From a virus (taxonomy: Duplodnaviria > Caudoviricetes): 41,426 nt of DNA. A program made the translations under genes and the position numbers. Below, one piece after another: positions 23,385-38,230 of the stretch (within the stretch, counting starts at the first letter, position 1; each line of letters starts with the position of its first letter). Location: IMG/VR virus record IMGVR_UViG_3300033485_000041, positions 1 through 41,426 of that record, one strand, 5' to 3'. The notes beneath the pieces were generated by a model, which ran no database searches, was not told where the DNA came from, and saw only the letters and a program-made list of their open reading frames with translations.

Positions 23385-24028
23385 TGAGTTGCCTTTATTT
23401 TGGCGATACGTTTTTTCGATGTTATAGCCTGCTCGATAGTCAGGCCCTTTGCGATTCGTTGCCTTACTGTTTTTCTCGATATCCCTATCTTTTTACACCA
23501 ATCTGTAAGGCATAATTTTTCTCCATTTATCGTTATCCAATTAACACGACGGCAATTTCTTCTCTGTTCTGCGCGGGTAGCCCACTTGCAGTTTACTGCG
23601 GTGTAATCTCCGTTGTTATCTATCCTTTCAAGAGTGTGTGCGTTGGTTGGTCGCATACCCATATCTTTAATGAAGTTTACAAATTTCATCCATTTGTCCG
23701 ATACCTTTATGCCACGACCGCCATAATTGCAGAAACTTTTATTGGTTGGTTTAGTGCATCGTTCTATCATTGCGCACCAGACTTTATATTCTTTACTCTT
23801 ACTAAGGCCATGCGTTTTCATCATGTCGGATAGCTGCTTTTTATGCAAGCAACCGCATGATCTAGTTGTTCCAGCTCTTAGAGAACATGTGGTAACTTTC
23901 TTCGTGTTACCGCAGTCACATTTACATATCCATGAGCTGGCATCTTTTTCGGCATCCCACACGTACTCAATACATATAATATTCCCGAATCTATAACCTA
24001 ACAAATTCAACTTATTGGGTGGGTTCAT
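23381..24028 (-). CDS. HNH-type homing endonuclease (CxCDCG family)
   Basis: W.CKCDCG, SCGC, W..M..RC, YGGRGI, RIDNNG.Y...NC.WAT..EQ..N. Confidence 0.9.
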   Translation of the reverse strand: MNPPNKLNLLGYRFGNIICIEYVWDAEKDASSWICKCDCGNTKKVTTCSLRAGTTRSCGCLHKKQLSDMMKTHGLSKSKEYKVWCAMIERCTKPTNKSFCNYGGRGIKVSDKWMKFVNFIKDMGMRPTNAHTLERIDNNGDYTAVNCKWATRAEQRRNCRRVNWITINGEKLCLTDWCKKIGISRKTVRQRIAKGLTIEQAITSKKRIAKIKATQ

Positions 24029-24648
24029 AATTTCAAAAGCGGGATCGCGCGTTCGTATTCTGCTTTGTATCCAACGACGAAAGCGGATAAAGCATCCTTT
24101 AGTTTCTCAGTGAAATCATCGGGCTTTACGATGACGTGAAGCGGCTTCATGCCTGGATAGTAACTCCAAAAATGCCATTCGCTCAAACCCGTTATGACCA
24201 GTCCGCCGTGAATCTGCGCAGTCACATCAGGCGGAAGAATACCGTCCATTACGTAATCGGTGTGAACCATCGGGCTTTTACACTTTATTTCTAGACCGGC
24301 TACGTAGCTACCGCATTCAGTGATAAGCGAGTCTGGCGAGCATCCGCAAATACCATCATCCGCCAAGCAGAATCCTACCTGTTCAAGAGTAAGTCCCGTG
24401 TGCTTGGCGAACGCTTCGCGCGCTTCCGGTTCAAGTGCTGTACCTGCATCCGTATATTTGTTGCCCTTCCACTGCTCGTAGGTTGGGCAGAATGTTTCAG
24501 CGATTAACTCACGCATGTATCCATTGGCTGATGACGATGGCTTTTCCTTTGGCGTTATAATCTCAGAAAACCGTGAGGCTGATGGCCTGCCCTTTCTCAG
24601 CATGAGCCATTCCGGTGTCCCTTGAATTATGTCTTTGTAGACTTTCAT
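24025..24648 (-). CDS. YqaJ/lambda-exonuclease-family recombination nuclease
   Basis: QGT.EW...R.G...AS, G..LEP.AR, SPD, LEIKC; adjacent to RecT. Confidence 0.93.
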   Translation of the reverse strand: MKVYKDIIQGTPEWLMLRKGRPSASRFSEIITPKEKPSSSANGYMRELIAETFCPTYEQWKGNKYTDAGTALEPEAREAFAKHTGLTLEQVGFCLADDGICGCSPDSLITECGSYVAGLEIKCKSPMVHTDYVMDGILPPDVTAQIHGGLVITGLSEWHFWSYYPGMKPLHVIVKPDDFTEKLKDALSAFVVGYKAEYERAIPLLKL

Positions 24649-25424
24649 TCTGTGGGTTCCCCTTCCTCAATCGAAACGGCTGGCGTAATCGGCGGTTGAG
24701 TGAATGGATTGATTGGTTCAGCGCGCGCGGCATCCGGCGTGATATTGATCGGCTCGTCATCCTTCTCGATCTTCTCGCGCAGTTCGGCTGACAGAGGTAG
24801 CCACTTGGAGCAACGACGGAATGCCGTTTTCTTGGCCATCTCGTTGTAATCAGTTACCCACGGGCCAGAGTTTGCGGCGCGCGAGCGTTTGCGGATAGCG
24901 TCAACGTCATCCTTCGAAAGAACTTCATCCTTTACGCTTCCGTCCTTCATGACGACATGCGCATAAGCGGCATACATCGCACAGCGAGGTTTCTTGAAGT
25001 CGATTTCGTGCTTTTCGATTTTGCCCATGTTGTAGGCGAAAACATCATTTTCGCAAACGACATCCGCGTGGATCGTGGAAATCTCACCCGAGCGAATGGC
25101 AAGCTCAACCAGACCCTTGTAGTCGATTACGAGCGTTGCTTTGTCGCCGTAGGGAATCAGATGGGCTCGGCGTCCATCTGGCTCCAAGCCAAGCGCAGAC
25201 AGGTCCATGAGACACTGTAGGAGGCTTTGCTGCGTGCATTCTGCCAGCTTTGGCGTGCGGTTGAGCGCAGTAAGCGCGACCCTGGCGAAGCGGTCTGGCG
25301 TGCAGTGTTTTGGAAGCGCAAGCGCAACCTGATCTTTGAAGCGGTCTGAGGAAATCAGATCGCGAATTGTCTTTGGCTTTGCCTCTTGAGCGGCTAGCGG
25401 CAGTTGTGGGTCGGTTGGGTTCAT
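24645..25424 (-). CDS. recT: RecT-family single-strand annealing recombinase
   Basis: P.L.EC...S, LGLEP, LIPY, I.YKGL..L..RSG, GPW.TD..EMAKKT..RR..K.LP.S. Confidence 0.95.
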   Translation of the reverse strand: MNPTDPQLPLAAQEAKPKTIRDLISSDRFKDQVALALPKHCTPDRFARVALTALNRTPKLAECTQQSLLQCLMDLSALGLEPDGRRAHLIPYGDKATLVIDYKGLVELAIRSGEISTIHADVVCENDVFAYNMGKIEKHEIDFKKPRCAMYAAYAHVVMKDGSVKDEVLSKDDVDAIRKRSRAANSGPWVTDYNEMAKKTAFRRCSKWLPLSAELREKIEKDDEPINITPDAARAEPINPFTQPPITPAVSIEEGEPTE

Positions 25425-25988: not shown

Positions 25989-26213
25989 TTACTGTGTTGG
26001 TTTATTCTTCGTTAAAACGGTTCCGTCGTTGGCTACAATGGCGTCATGATCGACGTAGTACGTGGTGTACTTGCCGTTTAGCAGTACTTCAACGCTAACT
26101 GGCTTTGTCTTGGCGTCCATTTCATCTCGCAGCCTATCTACGCGCTTTTCTATCTGGCGCACGATTAAGGCGAGCAGGACGATTGAGATCAGGAGTAGGA
26201 ATGATGTAATCAT
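25989..26213 (-). CDS. small membrane-anchored protein
   Basis: N-terminal hydrophobic segment. Confidence 0.65.
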   Translation of the reverse strand: MITSFLLLISIVLLALIVRQIEKRVDRLRDEMDAKTKPVSVEVLLNGKYTTYYVDHDAIVANDGTVLTKNKPTQ

Positions 26214-26229
26214 GGTGATTTTTGATTAA

Positions 26230-26493
26230 TTAACCGTCACCGGAACCGGAACCGTCACCGGAACCGTAACCGTCACCGTCACCGTAACCGTAACCATAAC
26301 CGTCACCGTAACCGTAACCGTAACCGTAACCGTAACCGTCACCGGAACCGTAACCGTAACCGTAACCGTCACCGGAACCGTAACCGTAACCGTAACCGTA
26401 ACCGTCACCGGAACCGTAACCGTAACCGTAACCGTCACCGGAACCGGAACCGTCACCGTAACCGTCACCATATTTAGTTTCTGTCGCACTCAT
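26230..26493 (-). CDS. Gly-X (GY/GD/GS) dipeptide-repeat protein
   Basis: ATGA-coupled to upstream ORF; every second residue is Gly. Confidence 0.7.
   Translation of the reverse strand: MSATETKYGDGYGDGSGSGDGYGYGYGSGDGYGYGYGYGSGDGYGYGYGSGDGYGYGYGYGYGDGYGYGYGDGDGYGSGDGSGSGDG
26233..26469 (-). repeat. hexamer array GGTTAC/GGTGAC/GGTTCC
   Basis: ~39 tandem 6-nt units; invariant GGT plus TAC/GAC/TCC (one TAT). Confidence 0.95.
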
Positions 26494-26828
26494 TTTTCAG
26501 TAGTAGAAAGGTTCACACCTGCGACTACAGGGATGATTTCGATTGCCTGCAAAAGCGTGATTTCCTGCACGGGTTTGCTGATTTTGCTGCGCTCGCGGTT
26601 CACTCCAAGACTGCTAACTTCATTCAGCGTAAGCGCGCCTTGCCAACTCCAAAGGCGTCGGGCGTTGCCTAATTTTATCTCTTGGCCAGCACGTTCGATA
26701 ATAGAGCCGATGTGAACGCCAGCACTGTACGTGCGGACAATAACCTCTGAGCCGAGTTTAACAGGCTGCTGCACAGAGTCAGCCCGGATATATTCTACGT
26801 CATCAATCTTTAGTGTATTTGGTTTCAT
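26490..26828 (-). CDS. DUF6948-like small beta protein
   Basis: VIVRT.SAGVH.G, L..ARRLW.W.GA.TL.E....G, IEIIP motifs. Confidence 0.75.
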   Translation of the reverse strand: MKPNTLKIDDVEYIRADSVQQPVKLGSEVIVRTYSAGVHIGSIIERAGQEIKLGNARRLWSWQGALTLNEVSSLGVNRERSKISKPVQEITLLQAIEIIPVVAGVNLSTTEK

Positions 26829-28377: not shown

Positions 28378-28614
28378 TTATTTTACTTCAGTCGTTTTCC
28401 ACACTGTTAACTTTTCGCTGTGCTTAGGCGTTACGCACTGGAGCCCAATTCCGGTTTGATTGAACAGCGGCTTTAGTAGGAACTCACGATGGCCTTCGTC
28501 GTCCCCGGTAAGGGCGCGGACCACTTTCCAAAGGCATCCGTTAACCTCCGGTGTAGTTATCGCCAGCATATCGCCCAAGTTAATCTCGCAGGCGCGTATT
28601 GTTTCGATTTTCAT
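28378..28614 (-). CDS. hypothetical protein
   Basis: 78 aa, ATGA overlap. Confidence 0.65.
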   Translation of the reverse strand: MKIETIRACEINLGDMLAITTPEVNGCLWKVVRALTGDDEGHREFLLKPLFNQTGIGLQCVTPKHSEKLTVWKTTEVK

Positions 28615-29345
28615 GAGAATAGCGCCTCCACGCGCTTCTGGAATTCATCGCGAGCCCACACGTAGATTTTGCTTCGATTGCTTCGGGCGAGGGCGAGGGC
28701 GCGGTCGCTGGCGAGGGCGAGGGCGCGGTCGAGGTCGAGGGCGTGGGCGAGGTCGAGGTCGCTGGCGAGGGCGAGGGCGCGGGCGAGGGCGTGGGCGAGG
28801 TCGAGGTCGAGGGCGTGGGCGAGGTCGAGGTCGCTGGCGAGGGCGAGGGCGCGGGCGAGGGCGCGGTCGAGGTCGAGGGAATGTAATTTCGACGCGGCAC
28901 TACGTGCCGCTATAAGCCCGTTCATGCTTCCGCTTGCAGCGAAATCACGAACGAACTTTGTCACCGTTTTCAATTCATCGCCATCTAAACCGACCCCTAC
29001 AAACACCCGGTCAAAAACATCGGCGACAAACTCCAATACCATGCGCTTGGAATCGCGGATCGCCATGCAGGTCCGCGTGCGGCCTGCCAGCTTGTCGGAC
29101 TCGCGAACGATTTCGCCGGAGACCTCGACATGGCAGAGAAGGAGCCCCGGCGCGTATTTGAGCGCATCGAGCGGATGCTCGCTGGCGTGCAGGCCGTTGG
29201 AGCAAGGAGCGATTTTACCCTCGGCGAAGAGCGTCGAGCCGACTTTAACCGGCTCGTCACTGTAGCGCGTGCGTGAGTTGTCCGTCAGGAAATGCCATGC
29301 TTTCACGGTCTCCGTCTGTTTATCGGAATCGATTTTTGAATTCAT
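28611..29345 (-). CDS. protein with C..GLHA....DAL.Y domain and DL/AL/AR/AH repeats
   Basis: First gene of leftward block; recurrent phage N-terminal domain plus low-complexity tract. Confidence 0.8.
   Translation of the reverse strand: MNSKIDSDKQTETVKAWHFLTDNSRTRYSDEPVKVGSTLFAEGKIAPCSNGLHASEHPLDALKYAPGLLLCHVEVSGEIVRESDKLAGRTRTCMAIRDSKRMVLEFVADVFDRVFVGVGLDGDELKTVTKFVRDFAASGSMNGLIAARSAASKLHSLDLDRALARALALASDLDLAHALDLDLAHALARALALASDLDLAHALDLDRALALASDRALALARSNRSKIYVWARDEFQKRVEALFS
28684..28877 (-). repeat. hexamer array GCCCTC/GACCTC/GCCCGC/GCCCAC/GCCAGC/GACCGC
   Basis: ~32 tandem 6-nt units in higher-order blocks. Confidence 0.93.
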
Positions 29346-29519
29346 AGGTTATGTTTACGCCGACACTAGATGCGCAAAAGTGGTCAATCGCAAGAAAAAT
29401 CTCCGCGCTATTATTTCTCGCGATCTAAGTCGTTGTCCGCAGGTATTTAGGATGCGAAGAAAATCTTTAGAGTTGAATTTGGCGAATGGAAGACTCACCG
29501 TTTGTGCGCAATGATTTCT
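29346..29519. promoter_or_regulatory. divergent promoter region
   Basis: AT-richer non-coding gap between leftward and rightward blocks; exact promoters not resolved. Confidence 0.5.
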
Positions 29520-29633
29520 GCCTAACACCGCGGATGAGCCGCGACCCTGAGAACAATCCTATGAAAAAGAAAACACTGAAGACTCAAGCCCAACGACCCG
29601 TCAGGGTCGTTGGCTCTGGACGCCTGGTTAGCG
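29520..29633 (-). mobile_element. attC-like site 1 (114 bp, degenerate)
   Basis: GCCTAAC...GTTAGCG ends; inner inverted repeat 29536-29550/29601-29616 with extra base. Confidence 0.6.
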
Positions 29634-29881
29634 GTCAATGCCGCGCCTGTGAAATATTCGGCGATGGGCCATGTTCGGCCAAGGCGTTCGAGCACATGCA
29701 GGAAAAAGCAGCACGAGCGATACACGCAGAACACAACCGCCACGAAGGCCAAGACATTCCGTGGATCGGACTGCACCGTTTTCAGCGCATAAAATATCGC
29801 CTGAAAGGCTACGCCGTGCTGATCGCACTCGGAATACCTGCACCCAAGACCGCTAACATCCGCCGATCAGACACGCCGTAG
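29561..29881 (+). CDS. cassette 1 hypothetical protein
   Basis: ATG inside site 1 (AATCCT-ATG); stop in loop of site 2. Confidence 0.65.
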   Translation: MKKKTLKTQAQRPVRVVGSGRLVSGQCRACEIFGDGPCSAKAFEHMQEKAARAIHAEHNRHEGQDIPWIGLHRFQRIKYRLKGYAVLIALGIPAPKTANIRRSDTP

Positions 29882-29909
29882 GGCGTTGTCTGTATCGCGC
29901 TGGTTGGGG
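29851..29909 (-). mobile_element. attC-like site 2 (59 bp, canonical spacing)
   Basis: Minus strand: CCCCAAC-N5-CGATACAG...CTGATCG-N6-GTTAGCG, with two extrahelical bases. Confidence 0.75.
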
Positions 29910-29954
29910 CTCCGATTTTAACGCAACGACAACAATCAAATAACAGGAAATATT

Positions 29955-30266
29955 ATGAGTGGTGGAAGCTGGGATTACTTTTACGGGCGACTTGAAGAAG
30001 TCGCTTCACGTCTTCAATGCGGGCGCGACCCGCTCCGCAAAGCATTTGGCTCGCATCTCCAAAAATGCGCGAAGGCGCTCCACGACATCGAGTGGGTGGA
30101 CTCGTGCGACTCTGCGCCGGGCGACGAAGTGAAGGCGATCAAGGCCGTGCTCGGCACCGACGGCCCGGCGCTCGTTCTTTCTGAATCTCGCAAGCAGGCA
30201 GAAGCGGCGCTAGAACAACTCAAGGCGGCGCTGGCAGATTGCCCTAACAACCCGCAACAGCCATGA
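29955..30266 (+). CDS. cassette 2 conserved phage hypothetical protein
   Basis: MSGGS.DY, ALHD.EW..S.D motifs; stop inside site 3. Confidence 0.8.
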   Translation: MSGGSWDYFYGRLEEVASRLQCGRDPLRKAFGSHLQKCAKALHDIEWVDSCDSAPGDEVKAIKAVLGTDGPALVLSESRKQAEAALEQLKAALADCPNNPQQP

Positions 30267-30327
30267 CGACGCCCAATAAAACAGAACGGGCCAAGACAGG
30301 GCTAGGCGCTGTGGCCGCTGGTTCGGC
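30242..30327 (-). mobile_element. attC-like site 3 (86 bp, degenerate)
   Basis: CCCTAAC...GTTCGGC ends; GCAACAGC/GCTGTGGC inner arms; CGCTG-GTT end shared with site 2. Confidence 0.5.
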
Positions 30328-30526
30328 TGGGTCAACGTTAGTCGATGCAACACTGCTTATAGAGCGAATCATCACGCACATCGCTGCGAACAAAAACACG
30401 CCGTTTCTTCAGGAGCAGATTATGCTCGCTAAGTGGAGCGCCGAAGAAATCGGACCTAGACTAGCAAAGCTAGCAGGATGCCGATGGATGCCGAATAAGG
30501 CGACCAGTACGCCCCGCGCTAGGTAA
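30263..30526 (+). CDS. cassette 3 hypothetical protein
   Basis: ATG inside site 3; runs through terminal core GCCGAAT (30490-30496). Confidence 0.6.
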   Translation: MTTPNKTERAKTGLGAVAAGSAGSTLVDATLLIERIITHIAANKNTPFLQEQIMLAKWSAEEIGPRLAKLAGCRWMPNKATSTPRAR

Positions 30527-30538
30527 CCGGAAACCGAT

Positions 30539-31186
30539 ATGACCGACGACATGTTCAGGCAAGTTTCTTCGCCAGAAGAGCGCGAGCCTAATAAGCAAAC
30601 GCCAGGGCAGGCCATCGCGGGCCGGCTCTGGCAAGAAAAGGCCAGGGCCGGCAAGCCGATGACTGAAGCCCAAGTCGGCAATGTCATTGACGGCATGCTC
30701 AAGGAGCTTGGCATGTCCAAGAAGCGGGCGCGCGTCGGGGGCAGAGATTTGCTTTTTGACGCCCTTTGCGTGTCGTGCGGTATAAACCCTCAAGAGGTGA
30801 CGCGCATGGCCGCTACTGGGATTGGAACGGCCCTAGCTGACATCGCAGCGGTGACGCCAAACCTTACGCCGGAGGAATTCGGCATTCGGGCGTCGAAATA
30901 CCGTCGAGAGCATCCCGACTGGGAATTGACGCCAACCGCGCTTTGCACGCACTGGGGGGAGCTCGGTACGGGCGACGCTGGGCAGGCCGTGGCCTCAATG
31001 CACGCGGCGGAGCCTAACGGGTGGCAGGAAGTGGCGATGCGCATGTTTCAAGAGGCTGAATGGGATGCTGGATCAATAGCCGTCATCCTGCAAAACGGAT
31101 GGGGTGGCATGTCGCTCGGACACCGCAAGGCGATCCAGAATCGAATCGCCCGTTCAGCCGTCGTCACAAGAAATATTTCAGATTGA
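30539..31186 (+). CDS. hypothetical protein, possibly replication-initiator-like
   Basis: 215 aa; TP.AL..HW..L helical motif; function inferred weakly from position. Confidence 0.6.
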   Translation: MTDDMFRQVSSPEEREPNKQTPGQAIAGRLWQEKARAGKPMTEAQVGNVIDGMLKELGMSKKRARVGGRDLLFDALCVSCGINPQEVTRMAATGIGTALADIAAVTPNLTPEEFGIRASKYRREHPDWELTPTALCTHWGELGTGDAGQAVASMHAAEPNGWQEVAMRMFQEAEWDAGSIAVILQNGWGGMSLGHRKAIQNRIARSAVVTRNISD

Positions 31187-31236: not shown

Positions 31237-31317
31237 ACAGCAGGCTTGCACCCGCTGATTTTTCAGTGGGACTTTCCTGCCGAGAAACCACCGCCCGCAA
31301 GCCCGGTGGTTTTTTTG
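31237..31317 (+). promoter_or_regulatory. kissing-loop leader/attenuator A
   Basis: Loop GGCTTGC (31243-49) complements terminator loop GCAAGCC (31297-303); stem AAACCACCG/CGGTGGTTT plus T run. Confidence 0.65.
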
Positions 31318-31319
31318 TT

Positions 31320-31555
31320 GGTCAAATTAACCGCCGCTCTAATGCCTCGGCGTTGGCTACCTCAAACGCTGGTTTTTTGGCTAGCGTCTCAAGTCCTGAA
31401 GGTGTGGTAGAGCCCCTACTTCAGGCAGGGGGTTCAGATGGAACTCACAGATTGGGCAAACGATGACGCGACAAGCACAGCAGATGTGCGCAAAAAGGCC
31501 GGACCTCACCTAGTCCGCTAGGGGGCTCTGTATTTCTCCTGATTGGGCAAACTTT
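31320..31555 (+). ncRNA. candidate structured RNA / long leader
   Basis: No convincing ORF; 5-6 hairpins; AGAGCCCC/GGGGCTCT long-range pair. Confidence 0.4.
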
Positions 31556-31578
31556 AAACGAAGTTAAAACTTAAACCT

Positions 31579-36007: not shown

Positions 36008-36511
36008 TTAGCCTTCAAATTTTCTGTAGAACGCTCCGAATGCCTTGGCCGCAGTTGTTTCGTATGCGTCAGAAGCTTTTTTTGCGGTGGCAAAGTATCC
36101 GATGTGAAAATACTTTCCGGCGACCGTAATTTGCGCCTGCCATTTTTTTGCATCCTTGCGCCAGCAAACGCCTTTGAAACCGCTCTTATTCGTGGAATAA
36201 CGCCCAGTATTCCATAAGTTTTCCATGTTCGTCGCCTCCCTTAAATTCGCAATCCAATTGGCGTCCTTGTCTCTATTCTTATGGTCAAGATCATTCTTTG
36301 GCCATGCGCCGTATACGTAGAGCCATGCCAGCCTATGCGCTTGGTAGGATTTTCTGTCGATTTTGATATAACGATAGCCATTTTTCCCAACCGTCCCAGC
36401 TTCGTCGCCACGTCGGATAACTCGTTTCGAAAAGAGCCATGTGAATCTTCCTGTATTCGGGCAATAGTGTAATAGCTCTTTTAGCCGTTCGGTAGTGAGT
36501 TTTTGCTTCAT
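36008..36511 (-). CDS. HNH-AP2 homing endonuclease; paralog of 3477-3986
   Basis: Start MKQKLT; identical LDHKNRDKDANWIANLREAT segment. Confidence 0.92.
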   Translation of the reverse strand: MKQKLTTERLKELLHYCPNTGRFTWLFSKRVIRRGDEAGTVGKNGYRYIKIDRKSYQAHRLAWLYVYGAWPKNDLDHKNRDKDANWIANLREATNMENLWNTGRYSTNKSGFKGVCWRKDAKKWQAQITVAGKYFHIGYFATAKKASDAYETTAAKAFGAFYRKFEG

Positions 36512-36598
36512 AAAATAGAAATGCCCCGGAGCCGCTAGACAGCCGGAGCATTTCCTATGAACACAAACCAAAGAATGTTTTCTGGCGCTAGCGGGCGC
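36512..36598 (-). promoter_or_regulatory. kissing-loop leader C
   Basis: CCGCTAG in 5' hairpin complements CTAGCGG in loop of hairpin 36518-36554 abutting the HNH start. Confidence 0.55.
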
Positions 36599-36708
36599 GA
36601 TTGACAAATGATAAAGTGTACAATGCGCGGATAATTTCAACATCTTTTTTAGCTATTTCTTCTCCGATGCCGCTTGAAAAGCCATGCGTAATAGGTAAGC
36701 CTCGCGCG

Positions 36709-37164
36709 ATGGCATACCTAAATCGTGTATTTTTAATAGGCAACCTAACGCGCGATCCCGAGCTACGGGTTACGCCAAAAGGCACAGCAATCTGTCAGTT
36801 CGGCCTTGCGGTCAACCGCCAGTTCAAGGACGAATCCGGCCAAAATCGCGATGAGACGACCTTTGTCGACATCGAAGCCTGGGGCAAGCAGGGCGAGCTC
36901 GTTGCGAAATATCTCACCAAGGGCAGCCCGGCCATGGTTGAAGGCCGCCTCAAACTCGATCAATGGGAGGACAAACAGACTCAGCAGAAGCGTAGCAAAC
37001 TAAAGGTTGTGCTCGATAACGTGCAGTTTCTCAGTTCAGGCAATGATAAGGTAAGGGGCGACAATCAAAACGCCGTAAATCAAGCGGAACGGCCTGCGGT
37101 GGGCCAGCCAACGGATAAGTCTAAGCCAGCAGCAAGCGACGTTGATGAGGACGTGCCATTCTAA
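36709..37164 (+). CDS. ssb: single-stranded DNA-binding protein
   Basis: LNRV.LIGNLTRDPELR, VEGRL, acidic DEDVPF tail. Confidence 0.97.
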   Translation: MAYLNRVFLIGNLTRDPELRVTPKGTAICQFGLAVNRQFKDESGQNRDETTFVDIEAWGKQGELVAKYLTKGSPAMVEGRLKLDQWEDKQTQQKRSKLKVVLDNVQFLSSGNDKVRGDNQNAVNQAERPAVGQPTDKSKPAASDVDEDVPF

Positions 37165-37174
37165 GCGCGAAAGA

Positions 37175-37200
37175 AGCCGCTCCCAGTTACGAGAGCGGCT
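37175..37200. terminator. stem-loop after ssb
   Basis: 8-bp stem AGCCGCTC/GAGCGGCT; no good + strand T tail. Confidence 0.45.
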
Positions 37201-37337
37201 ACCCCTATGATATGAATACCCTTTTCTCCGGCGAGAACGAAGAAACGCCATCGCGAGTTTGGCAAGCGGAAAAGAAAAAATAAGATTTCGCGAAGAAAGT
37301 TCTTGCAAAGTCCGCGAAGATCGGCACGGTGTGCATC

Positions 37338-37434
37338 GTTTTCGGGGTGAAGCCGCAAAACCTAGTCAATTTCTCAGGTCTAAAAGCCTTTGGAAAGCCC
37401 GGTTCCACTGCTTCACCCAGTGACCGGGTTTTTT
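37338..37434 (+). promoter_or_regulatory. kissing-loop leader/attenuator B
   Basis: Loop GGTGAAG (37346-52) complements terminator loop CTTCACC (37411-17); T6 tail; TTGCAA at 37303. Confidence 0.7.
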
Positions 37435-37439
37435 GTTCC

Positions 37440-38230
37440 CCGGATAACAAACAAAGCCTGCGCCATGTAAGCGGGTCGCTACTCCGAAATGGAATACACC
37501 GATCTGCAACTGCTGAAAAATAGCAATGCACCTGCGGGCAAAATGAAGGTTCCATATGGCGTCAGCGCGGAAAGCTGTTCCGGACTAGAGACGCGCAACA
37601 TCAACGTGTGCCTATGGGAAGTTGAACAAGAAATCGCATAGGATAGCCTGAGTAGCGTCAGGCACGCCATATAGAGCCTTCATGAAACGGTGCCCGCAGC
37701 GTGGGCATTGTTTAGCTTCCACCGTATAGGACCAATACCCAAGCGCGTTTGGGTAAAGGATGAAAGGCTATTCTCAGACTCGCAAGAGGGGCTGGCCGAA
37801 CTTCCGAAAGAAGGCATTCTTAGGAGACGGAAATGAGGAGACGGAAGCTAAACAATGCCCATGACGATGGCGCTGTTGAGTTATTCAGATGGAGGCTGCT
37901 GAGTAGAGAGCGTTTCCGGTGTCGAGTTATATCGTATGCGCGACTATTCACCACCCCGAAAGGGAGAAAGCCCGAATTTAAACCGGTAACTCAATAGCGC
38001 CATCACCGGCCACCGTTTCAATCACCGTCAGGGCGTCGCGTCCCGATCTATTGCCAGCGCGACTTAAAAGTAACAGGCTGCTTAAACAAGCAGGGGTGAT
38101 GACGAGAGACGAGCGCTTAACTTTACTGTTTAGCCAGCGCGTTGACCCTCTCGTGAGTAGTAACGCGAATCCATAGTCCAATGCGATTTACTTCAACACA
38201 CCCTCGCTCTTGGATGGGCGAGGTGTGAAC
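37440..38230 (+). ncRNA. candidate large structured ncRNA
   Basis: No credible ORF; three tandem domains closed by 18-28 bp helices with G-U pairs and GNRA-type loops on + strand. Confidence 0.7.

Follow-up and report, generated by a model that had tools for sequence, protein, structure and literature searches.

An integrase-less integron-type array in a tailed phage, its three cassettes carrying genes reversed relative to bacterial cassettes and likely built by an outside integron integrase

A tailed-phage genome fragment contains what we are confident is an integrase-less, three-cassette array of the integron type, with genes reversed relative to bacterial cassettes and likely built by an integron integrase from outside. 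The analyzed DNA (the window) is 41,426 nucleotides long and corresponds to positions 1 to 41,426 of IMG/VR record IMGVR_UViG_3300033485_000041, a record classed as linear and 54% complete. It encodes terminase, portal, major capsid, tape measure, RecT, and RecE-like proteins. By sequence comparison we establish the family to which the sites belong, their orientation, unit ends that run from AAC to AAC, and protein tails that depend on the neighboring unit.

The array is at the beginning of a rightward run of small genes, and the recombination genes (RecT and RecE-like, 24025-25424) diverge from that run. It comprises three two-armed sites (29520-29633, 29851-29909, and 30242-30327) and a one-armed junction at 30490. 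A CALIN is defined by two or more attC sites that share a strand within 4 kb, with no intI nearby, and the window array fits this description. It lacks the intI gene of a complete integron, a gene that other phages with this layout do carry: no tyrosine recombinase or intI was found in the 41.4-kb window of this 54% complete record, and IntI is also absent from G001, a related phage genome with terminal repeats. A canonical gene cassette has its ORF on the top strand and its own attC after it; the window ORFs are instead on the strand with the bottom layout, each with its own site in front.

Site 1 (29520-29633) shows the bottom-strand layout of an attC site on the plus strand and has a long loop that holds the ORF1 start codon at 29561. 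The first stop of the frame that reads AAC as Asn is at 29548-50, 10 nt ahead of this ATG. Site 2 (29851-29909, 59 nt) has the same layout on the plus strand and holds the ORF1 stop and no start. Site 3 (30242-30327, plus strand) is a degenerate attC-type site in which the cores and L arms are kept and the inner stem has decayed; an ATGA overlap joins ORF2 to ORF3 here, and sites of this type also occur in G001 and L063. The terminal junction (30490-30538, plus strand) includes a core, an imperfect inverted repeat, and the leader of the fixed downstream gene. It has only the left half of a site, and its core is AAT here and AAC in G001 and L063. It is likely an orphan attI-like dock, as it occupies the position that an attI-like site has ahead of intI in phages with an integrase, with weak sequence likeness. 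We also considered a host attI and dropped it on sequence, finding no match to the host attI consensus.

Using the integron anatomy described in Cury 2016 (PMC4889954) and Nivina 2016 (PMC5027507), we find the inverted R and L boxes, the AAC/GTT triplet, and spacers of 5-6 nt. Read on the plus strand, site 2 reproduces the published aadA7 bottom-strand layout (a 7-nt core, a 6-nt spacer, the L arm, two extra bases on the arm opposite AAC, a 5-nt spacer, and GTT). Extra-helical bases on the arm opposite AAC are on one strand only, the plus strand, in sites 1 and 2. Assigning the strand by folding energy fails, the two strands being nearly equal at all three sites (-21.2/-21.4, -15.6/-15.1, and -12.0/-10.8 kcal/mol for sites 1, 2, and 3). 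A generic search for repeats missed the sites, and Rfam gave nothing close to a gathering score. Site 1 has a rival to its recombinogenic fold in an inner inverted repeat: the loop (29587-29616) contains a 10-bp copy complementary to the right arm, also kept in L076, and the fold of lowest energy is for this reason non-recombinogenic, with the ATG exposed. Given this preference, the decayed site 3, and the AAT of the dock, the window array may be frozen.

Sites of this family were found by a consensus pattern scan of bacterial genomes, which returned 39 loci, 35 from Verrucomicrobiota. Twelve of the 39 have IntI matches (all three tested exceed the TIGR02249 cut-off), and genes are in canonical orientation in 122 of 125 host array intervals. 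We built a covariance model from 37 bacterial sites only, all from Verrucomicrobiota chromosomal integrons. In the 41.4-kb window, the top two of its 12 matches are sites 1 and 2, on the plus strand only (32.5 and 21.4 bits, E 5e-6 and 4e-3; the third best has 12.3 bits), so the significant matches are on the sense strand in two of two cases. Both sites align over all 61 positions of the model; site 3, which retains the boxes and not the inner stem, falls under its threshold. In ORF2-bearing loci the model again finds the sense strand (29/29 at E<=0.1 in 13 close loci, and 20/20 in 98 distant loci).

Two looser patterns returned 87 viral loci, and a strict short-site pattern returned no viral locus. 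The bottom strand is the sense strand in 51 of 66 viral intervals and the top strand (canonical) in 12, with three ties, although a coverage rule leaves 18 of the 66 sites without a clear call and the counts are not independent, the sites being related. The published TJE1 array, used as a control, comes out as canonical, with its top strand as the coding strand. None of 204 phage cassette bodies matched a host cassette in the 39 host loci; the matches were to IntI and to one stretch outside the arrays. On these sequence grounds, we assign the window sites to the attC family found in chromosomal integrons of Opitutae, and this one site family has opposite orientations in host and phage. A preliminary description of the window had proposed that the sites are inverted relative to the ORFs, and the site 2 layout and the host-only model bear this out, both on the plus strand only.

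The phage arrays share with the sedentary chromosomal integrons of Opitutae and Verrucomicrobiota the site family, the core rule, the extra-base layout, and Asn-frame read-through. In both, intI follows an attI core and is on the strand with the bottom layout. The host genes point away from intI and are each followed by their own site, unlike the phage genes. Host sites have a median length of 61 nt and phage sites a median of 99 nt, the latter often holding a start codon.

We delimit three units on the plus strand. Unit 1 (29526-29856) is site 1 with the ORF1 body and would result from crossovers at AA|C on both sides; unit 2 (29857-30247) is site 2 with ORF2 and its own AT-rich leader, and it recurs between other neighbors; unit 3 (30248-30495) is site 3 with the ORF3 body, delimited by core complementarity. 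Unit 2 is found at 99.5% identity over 29855-30252 in G001 and, among the 80 metagenome loci kept for ORF2, at 90-92% in L065-L069, with different neighbors on both sides. The copies break at AAC cores, and the sequence upstream of AAC is unrelated in G001, L065, L066, and L069. G001 has flanks as in the window around a different array, with only this segment in common. A contig of run X2 keeps the flanks and replaces the array with 2175 other letters. The right anchor is a fixed downstream gene (30539-31186, plus strand; 215 aa, no family) conserved in G001 and in this X2 contig.

The cores point to the same limits. The right core of unit 1 (GTTAGCG) is fully complementary to the left core that follows it (CGCTAAC), and that of unit 3 (GTTCGGC) complements GCCGAA at 30490; both score 4/4 against the next left core and 2/4 against their own. 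Across the three units, the scores against the next left core are 4/4, 3/4 plus a G-T pair, and 4/4, compared with 2/4 each against the own core. Right cores that match the next left core are expected if a unit runs from AAC to AAC with its site at the 5' end. The next left core beats the own core in 76 versus 9 of 125 host cases, 33 versus 5 of 47 phage cases, and all three in the window. The unit 2 breakpoints and the core complementarity together argue for crossover in the AAC triplet, which yields composite cores. The proposal that each unit is a site with the ORF downstream of it is upheld. No match to unit 2 was found in 50,697 GenBank phages. Contigs of four runs contain no core-to-core excision joint, although contigs cannot show its absence.

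Not all exchange is at the left core. Of the distinct internal ends of shared segments, most of them from unit 2, 20 of 29 starts and 23 of 40 ends coincide with a left core, while eight segment ends fall at the right core. Site 1 is found at 92.6% identity on a different gene body in L076, and the ORF1 body at 99% with a different leader in P0128. From these comparisons, exchange also occurs at or near the other core and joins sites to other bodies. The site is thus at the 5' end of the moving unit, as had been suggested, but as a leader it is not bound to one gene.

One reading that we consider improbable is that the sites are decayed attC copies serving as homology islands for the phage RecT/RecE system, with no integrase now. 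The window does encode RecT and RecE-like proteins and no integrase, and whole sites or leaders occur on other bodies, with ends in the conserved right arm. Counting against it are the start of unit 2 at AAC with unrelated sequence upstream in four loci, right cores that pair with the next left core, the retained extra-helical bases, and the same layout in integrase-bearing phages. Quite improbable, in our judgment, is comparable recombination of both strands, with site plus leader and body moving separately and both protein ends shuffled. The eight ends at the right core and the ORF1 body with another leader would fit, and sites with two extra bases are described as less strand-selective (Nivina 2016, PMC5027507). 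Against it, sharing of sites alone is mostly at 87-94% identity and that of unit 2 reaches 99.5%, core complementarity favors the next left core 33 to 5, and bottom strands of phage sites recombined better than top strands in the assays described in Qi 2023 (PMC9892861).

In seven loci (L070-L076), ORF2 with the same leader is directly behind a helicase-like gene and has no site. The likeness begins about 36 nt ahead of the ORF2 start, at an AAC triplet at 29919 (window 29919-29954). In L070 and L072 the array finishes in an attI-like sequence, and an intI was not seen in either locus. Genes that read as DNA methyltransferase-like are frequent among phage cassettes (L065:5456-6467, L073, L190, L200, L254, and L255).

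ORF1 (29561-29881, plus strand; 106 aa, no family) starts in the loop of site 1, from which it takes its leader, and ends at TAG 29879-81 in the loop of site 2, which supplies the tail IRRSDTP. It has 13 homologs, and those of the cassette type vary before VSG and after AN. ORF2 (29955-30266, plus strand; 103 aa) is a predicted three-helix protein of a large unnamed family. Its ATG is 46 nt past site 2 and its stop (TGA 30264-66) is inside site 3, overlapping the ORF3 ATG at 30263. ORF3 (30263-30526, plus strand; 87 aa, no family) has homologs whose sequences vary ahead of the right core and past W[ML]PN. The three ORFs pass the cores as TAN, CPN, and MPN. The positions of starts and stops in the sites, and these crossings, are as first described; the claim that the sites supply both starts and stops holds for the starts from sites 1 and 3 and not for ORF2, whose start is outside site 2. 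We found no PHROG, NCBIfam, or significant Pfam family for the three ORFs or the anchor gene, no match in PDB at E<=0.001 for the ORF2 model, and no relative of the ORF3 body among viral contigs. With an in-frame upstream ATG (29486-29560), ORF1 reaches 131 aa, and the frame in which it then crosses the left core is unusual. Resemblance to the X2 allele stops at 29489, and the upstream extension may be the stub of a lost gene.

The next unit writes the end of the protein. Among 29 near-copies of ORF2 there are 27 different tails, many recognizable as left arms, with Asn at the junction in 27. Homologs of ORF1 and ORF3 behave in the same way, diverging right after the core Asn and showing no conservation past the core, as predicted for a C-terminus set by the neighbor. 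The tails, 1-28 residues long with a median of 7 across 66 phage sites, lie past the last predicted helix. In the ORF2 model (mean pLDDT 92.5) the fold ends at residue 94, the core corresponds to residues 96-98, and the tail has a pLDDT of about 52. Distant ORF2 homologs without a site end at about the same place. Classical cassettes had been described as usually stopping at or before their own attC, but read-through is not peculiar to inverted ones: among canonical cassettes, 31 of 111 host ORFs and two of three in phage TJE1 run on into the attC that belongs to them.

We regard the tails as likely by-products that are tolerated. Since the core comes after the end of the predicted fold, shuffling likely trims the protein ends and does not edit function; what remains of the idea that shuffling edits proteins is a modest effect on short, variable ends. 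That the neighbor-dependent tails are the purpose of the array, making it a protein-diversifying device, seems to us very improbable. Twenty-seven tails among 29 copies and occasional long extensions or fusions (P0013, P0021, and P0030) could be read in this way, but the tails are short and lie past the last predicted helix with a low pLDDT, and the site-less homologs stop near the same residue.

The sites also appear to organize translation. Before phage sites, 202 distinct gene ends include 109 that cross in the Asn frame, 40 that stop in the core, eight that cross in other frames, 27 with an earlier stop, and 18 with no ORF. For 480 random AAC triplets of the same loci, the numbers are 126, 15, 133, 57, and 149, showing a milder bias to the Asn frame (126 of 259 crossings). 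The Asn-frame rule is not specific to phages; it is also found in canonical host cassettes (17 versus 1 of 67) and probably reflects the way in which cassettes are made.

Among 68 sites that hold an ATG of their own, 45 place the first stop of the Asn frame within -8 to +12 nt of it. Shuffling gives an expectation of 16.8 when the frame is free and 30.6 when it is fixed, and 45 was never reached in 20,000 draws. When similar loops are collapsed, the count is 40 of 60, with 23 as ATGA. In the window the gaps from stop to ATG are +10 at site 1, -4 at site 3, and +12 at the dock, with no inner start in site 2. ORFs were called with a simple ATG rule; this crude rule places the start inside the site in 41 and after it in 66 of 124 phage sites, and likely undercounts those inside. 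The placement of stops, in agreement with the earlier proposal that coupling depends on the next site, suggests that the sites act as a standard coupling interface, and this coupling may be selected. It would fit the known behavior of attC hairpins, which are described as blocking ribosomes until translation into the site relieves the block by termination-reinitiation (PMC8876359).

IntI matches are present in 14 of the 87 viral loci (13 strong), including the near-copy pairs L235/L265 and L214/L222; L267 and L186 look partial. Most of these loci have cassettes, then an attI-like core, then intI (316-338 aa), all on one strand. Seven of nine tested phage IntI exceed the TIGR02249 cut-off, and the catalytic R, K, H-x-x-R, H, and Y columns are invariant in 12 of 12 aligned rows. 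An attI-like core that resembles host attI sites is just upstream of IntI in nine. Phage IntI proteins are short and lack the long N-terminal extension of the host proteins. Of six integrase-bearing contigs examined (15 large ORFs tested), four have head or packaging genes and two, with few ORFs tested, have no phage hallmark; Terminase_6N was not found in 10 integrase-bearing records. In a tree of 16 IntI rows, six host proteins are on one supported branch and one is among the phage proteins, and phage and host IntI are not cleanly apart. Inverted arrays leading to an attI-like core and a short co-directional IntI are seen in L265:3789-4781, L254, L215, L249, L200, L199, L222, L255, and L190. 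L169, from an Opitutales genome bin, has a canonical array; its IntI groups with a phage IntI (L200) and its attI is unlike that of other hosts.

For the integrase-less array of the window, we propose that IntI would be supplied in trans by a Verrucomicrobiota host or another phage and would cut the folded coding strand at AA|C, a model based on the cleavage site and strand rule given in Nivina 2016 (PMC5027507). Units would be excised and inserted, and new ones would dock at the fixed downstream junction. The array genes point towards the dock, and a Pc reading from the attI side could not read them. Phage transcription from the left would read all genes, so that no Pc would be needed. Any unit could be coupled in translation to any other, because a gene either enters the next site in the Asn frame or terminates in its core, and a site that has an inner ATG mostly holds a stop of that frame close to it. 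Ribosomes passing through the left arm may also melt the mRNA hairpin in which the ATG is hidden. If the genes run with replication, the coding strand would be the lagging-strand template, a position reported to favor excision (Loot 2017, PMC5371416). A slower second process may join sites and leaders to new bodies; cassette birth, top-strand recombination, and RecT-type recombination in the right arm are candidates.

Tentatively, and with slightly more doubt than belief, we extend this to Verrucomicrobiota phages that run their own mirror-image integrons. An early operon would have at its far end an attI dock followed by a phage-type IntI, the coding strand would be recombinogenic, and the sites would be translation connectors that serve at any position. 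Integrase-less phages, including the present one, would draw on a shared pool, and ORF2, which is found both behind a site and, in L070-L076, without one, may exemplify the conversion of ordinary phage genes into cassettes.

Phage attC clusters are already published, and the inversion was not found in print in the open-access literature. Qi 2023 (PMC9892861) describes phage CALINs, integrase-less attC clusters in phage genomes as here, and five of six tested sites recombined with IntI1, the bottom strand best; in the sections consulted, TJE1 is called a typical array and gene inversion is not reported. In the window array, unlike in those CALINs as described, genes are coded on the bottom strand, and start codons and the stop of the next gene lie within the sites. 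The complete phage integrons described there are captured bacterial ones, unlike the inverted phage versions here. In the Treponema inverted-integrase integrons (Cury 2016, PMC4889954), intI is also co-directional with the cassette genes, but according to that description the integrase is flipped relative to attC, whereas in the phages the relation of attC, attI, and intI is usual and the genes are flipped. Translation control by ORF-11 and attC in class 1 integrons likewise involves a hairpin block relieved by termination-reinitiation, and the gcuF1-blaOXA-28 fusion likewise shows that cassette order can alter a protein end (both PMC8876359). The class 1 case is occasional in that account, while phage coupling looks built into most sites, on the opposite strand. 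Our search of the open-access literature, which did not cover subscription journals, returned no report of gene-inverted arrays, of starts in attC loops as a rule, or of inverted integrons of the phage type.

These arrays extend integrons from a device of bacterial adaptation to one of phages with reversed logic, and they explain a variable region of many uncultured phages. Annotation tools misread the N-terminal leaders and C-terminal tails, which are recombination-site sequence. Near-identical genes with different sites or none are natural material for the question of cassette origin, and sites with the double role of recombination and translational coupling offer synthetic biology a ready-made scheme for gene shuffling.

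A sigma-70 promoter scan gave nothing above chance. The window and G001 have the early region and array site in common, and their structural modules are largely unrelated (window 1-21000 against G001 1-30000). The anchor gene (30539-30600 against G001 36472-37897) looks like a fusion: its start resembles one G001 gene and its body another, 0.94 kb further on, and the G001 interval facing it contains an HTH-like gene and an HNH gene. Behind the anchor gene, about 390 nt without a long ORF (31250-31560) contain several hairpins. Imperfect tandem repeats with a 6-nt unit are in coding frames at 28684-28880 and 26190-26519, and a DUF7666 gene (28611-29345) has LA/LD repeats.
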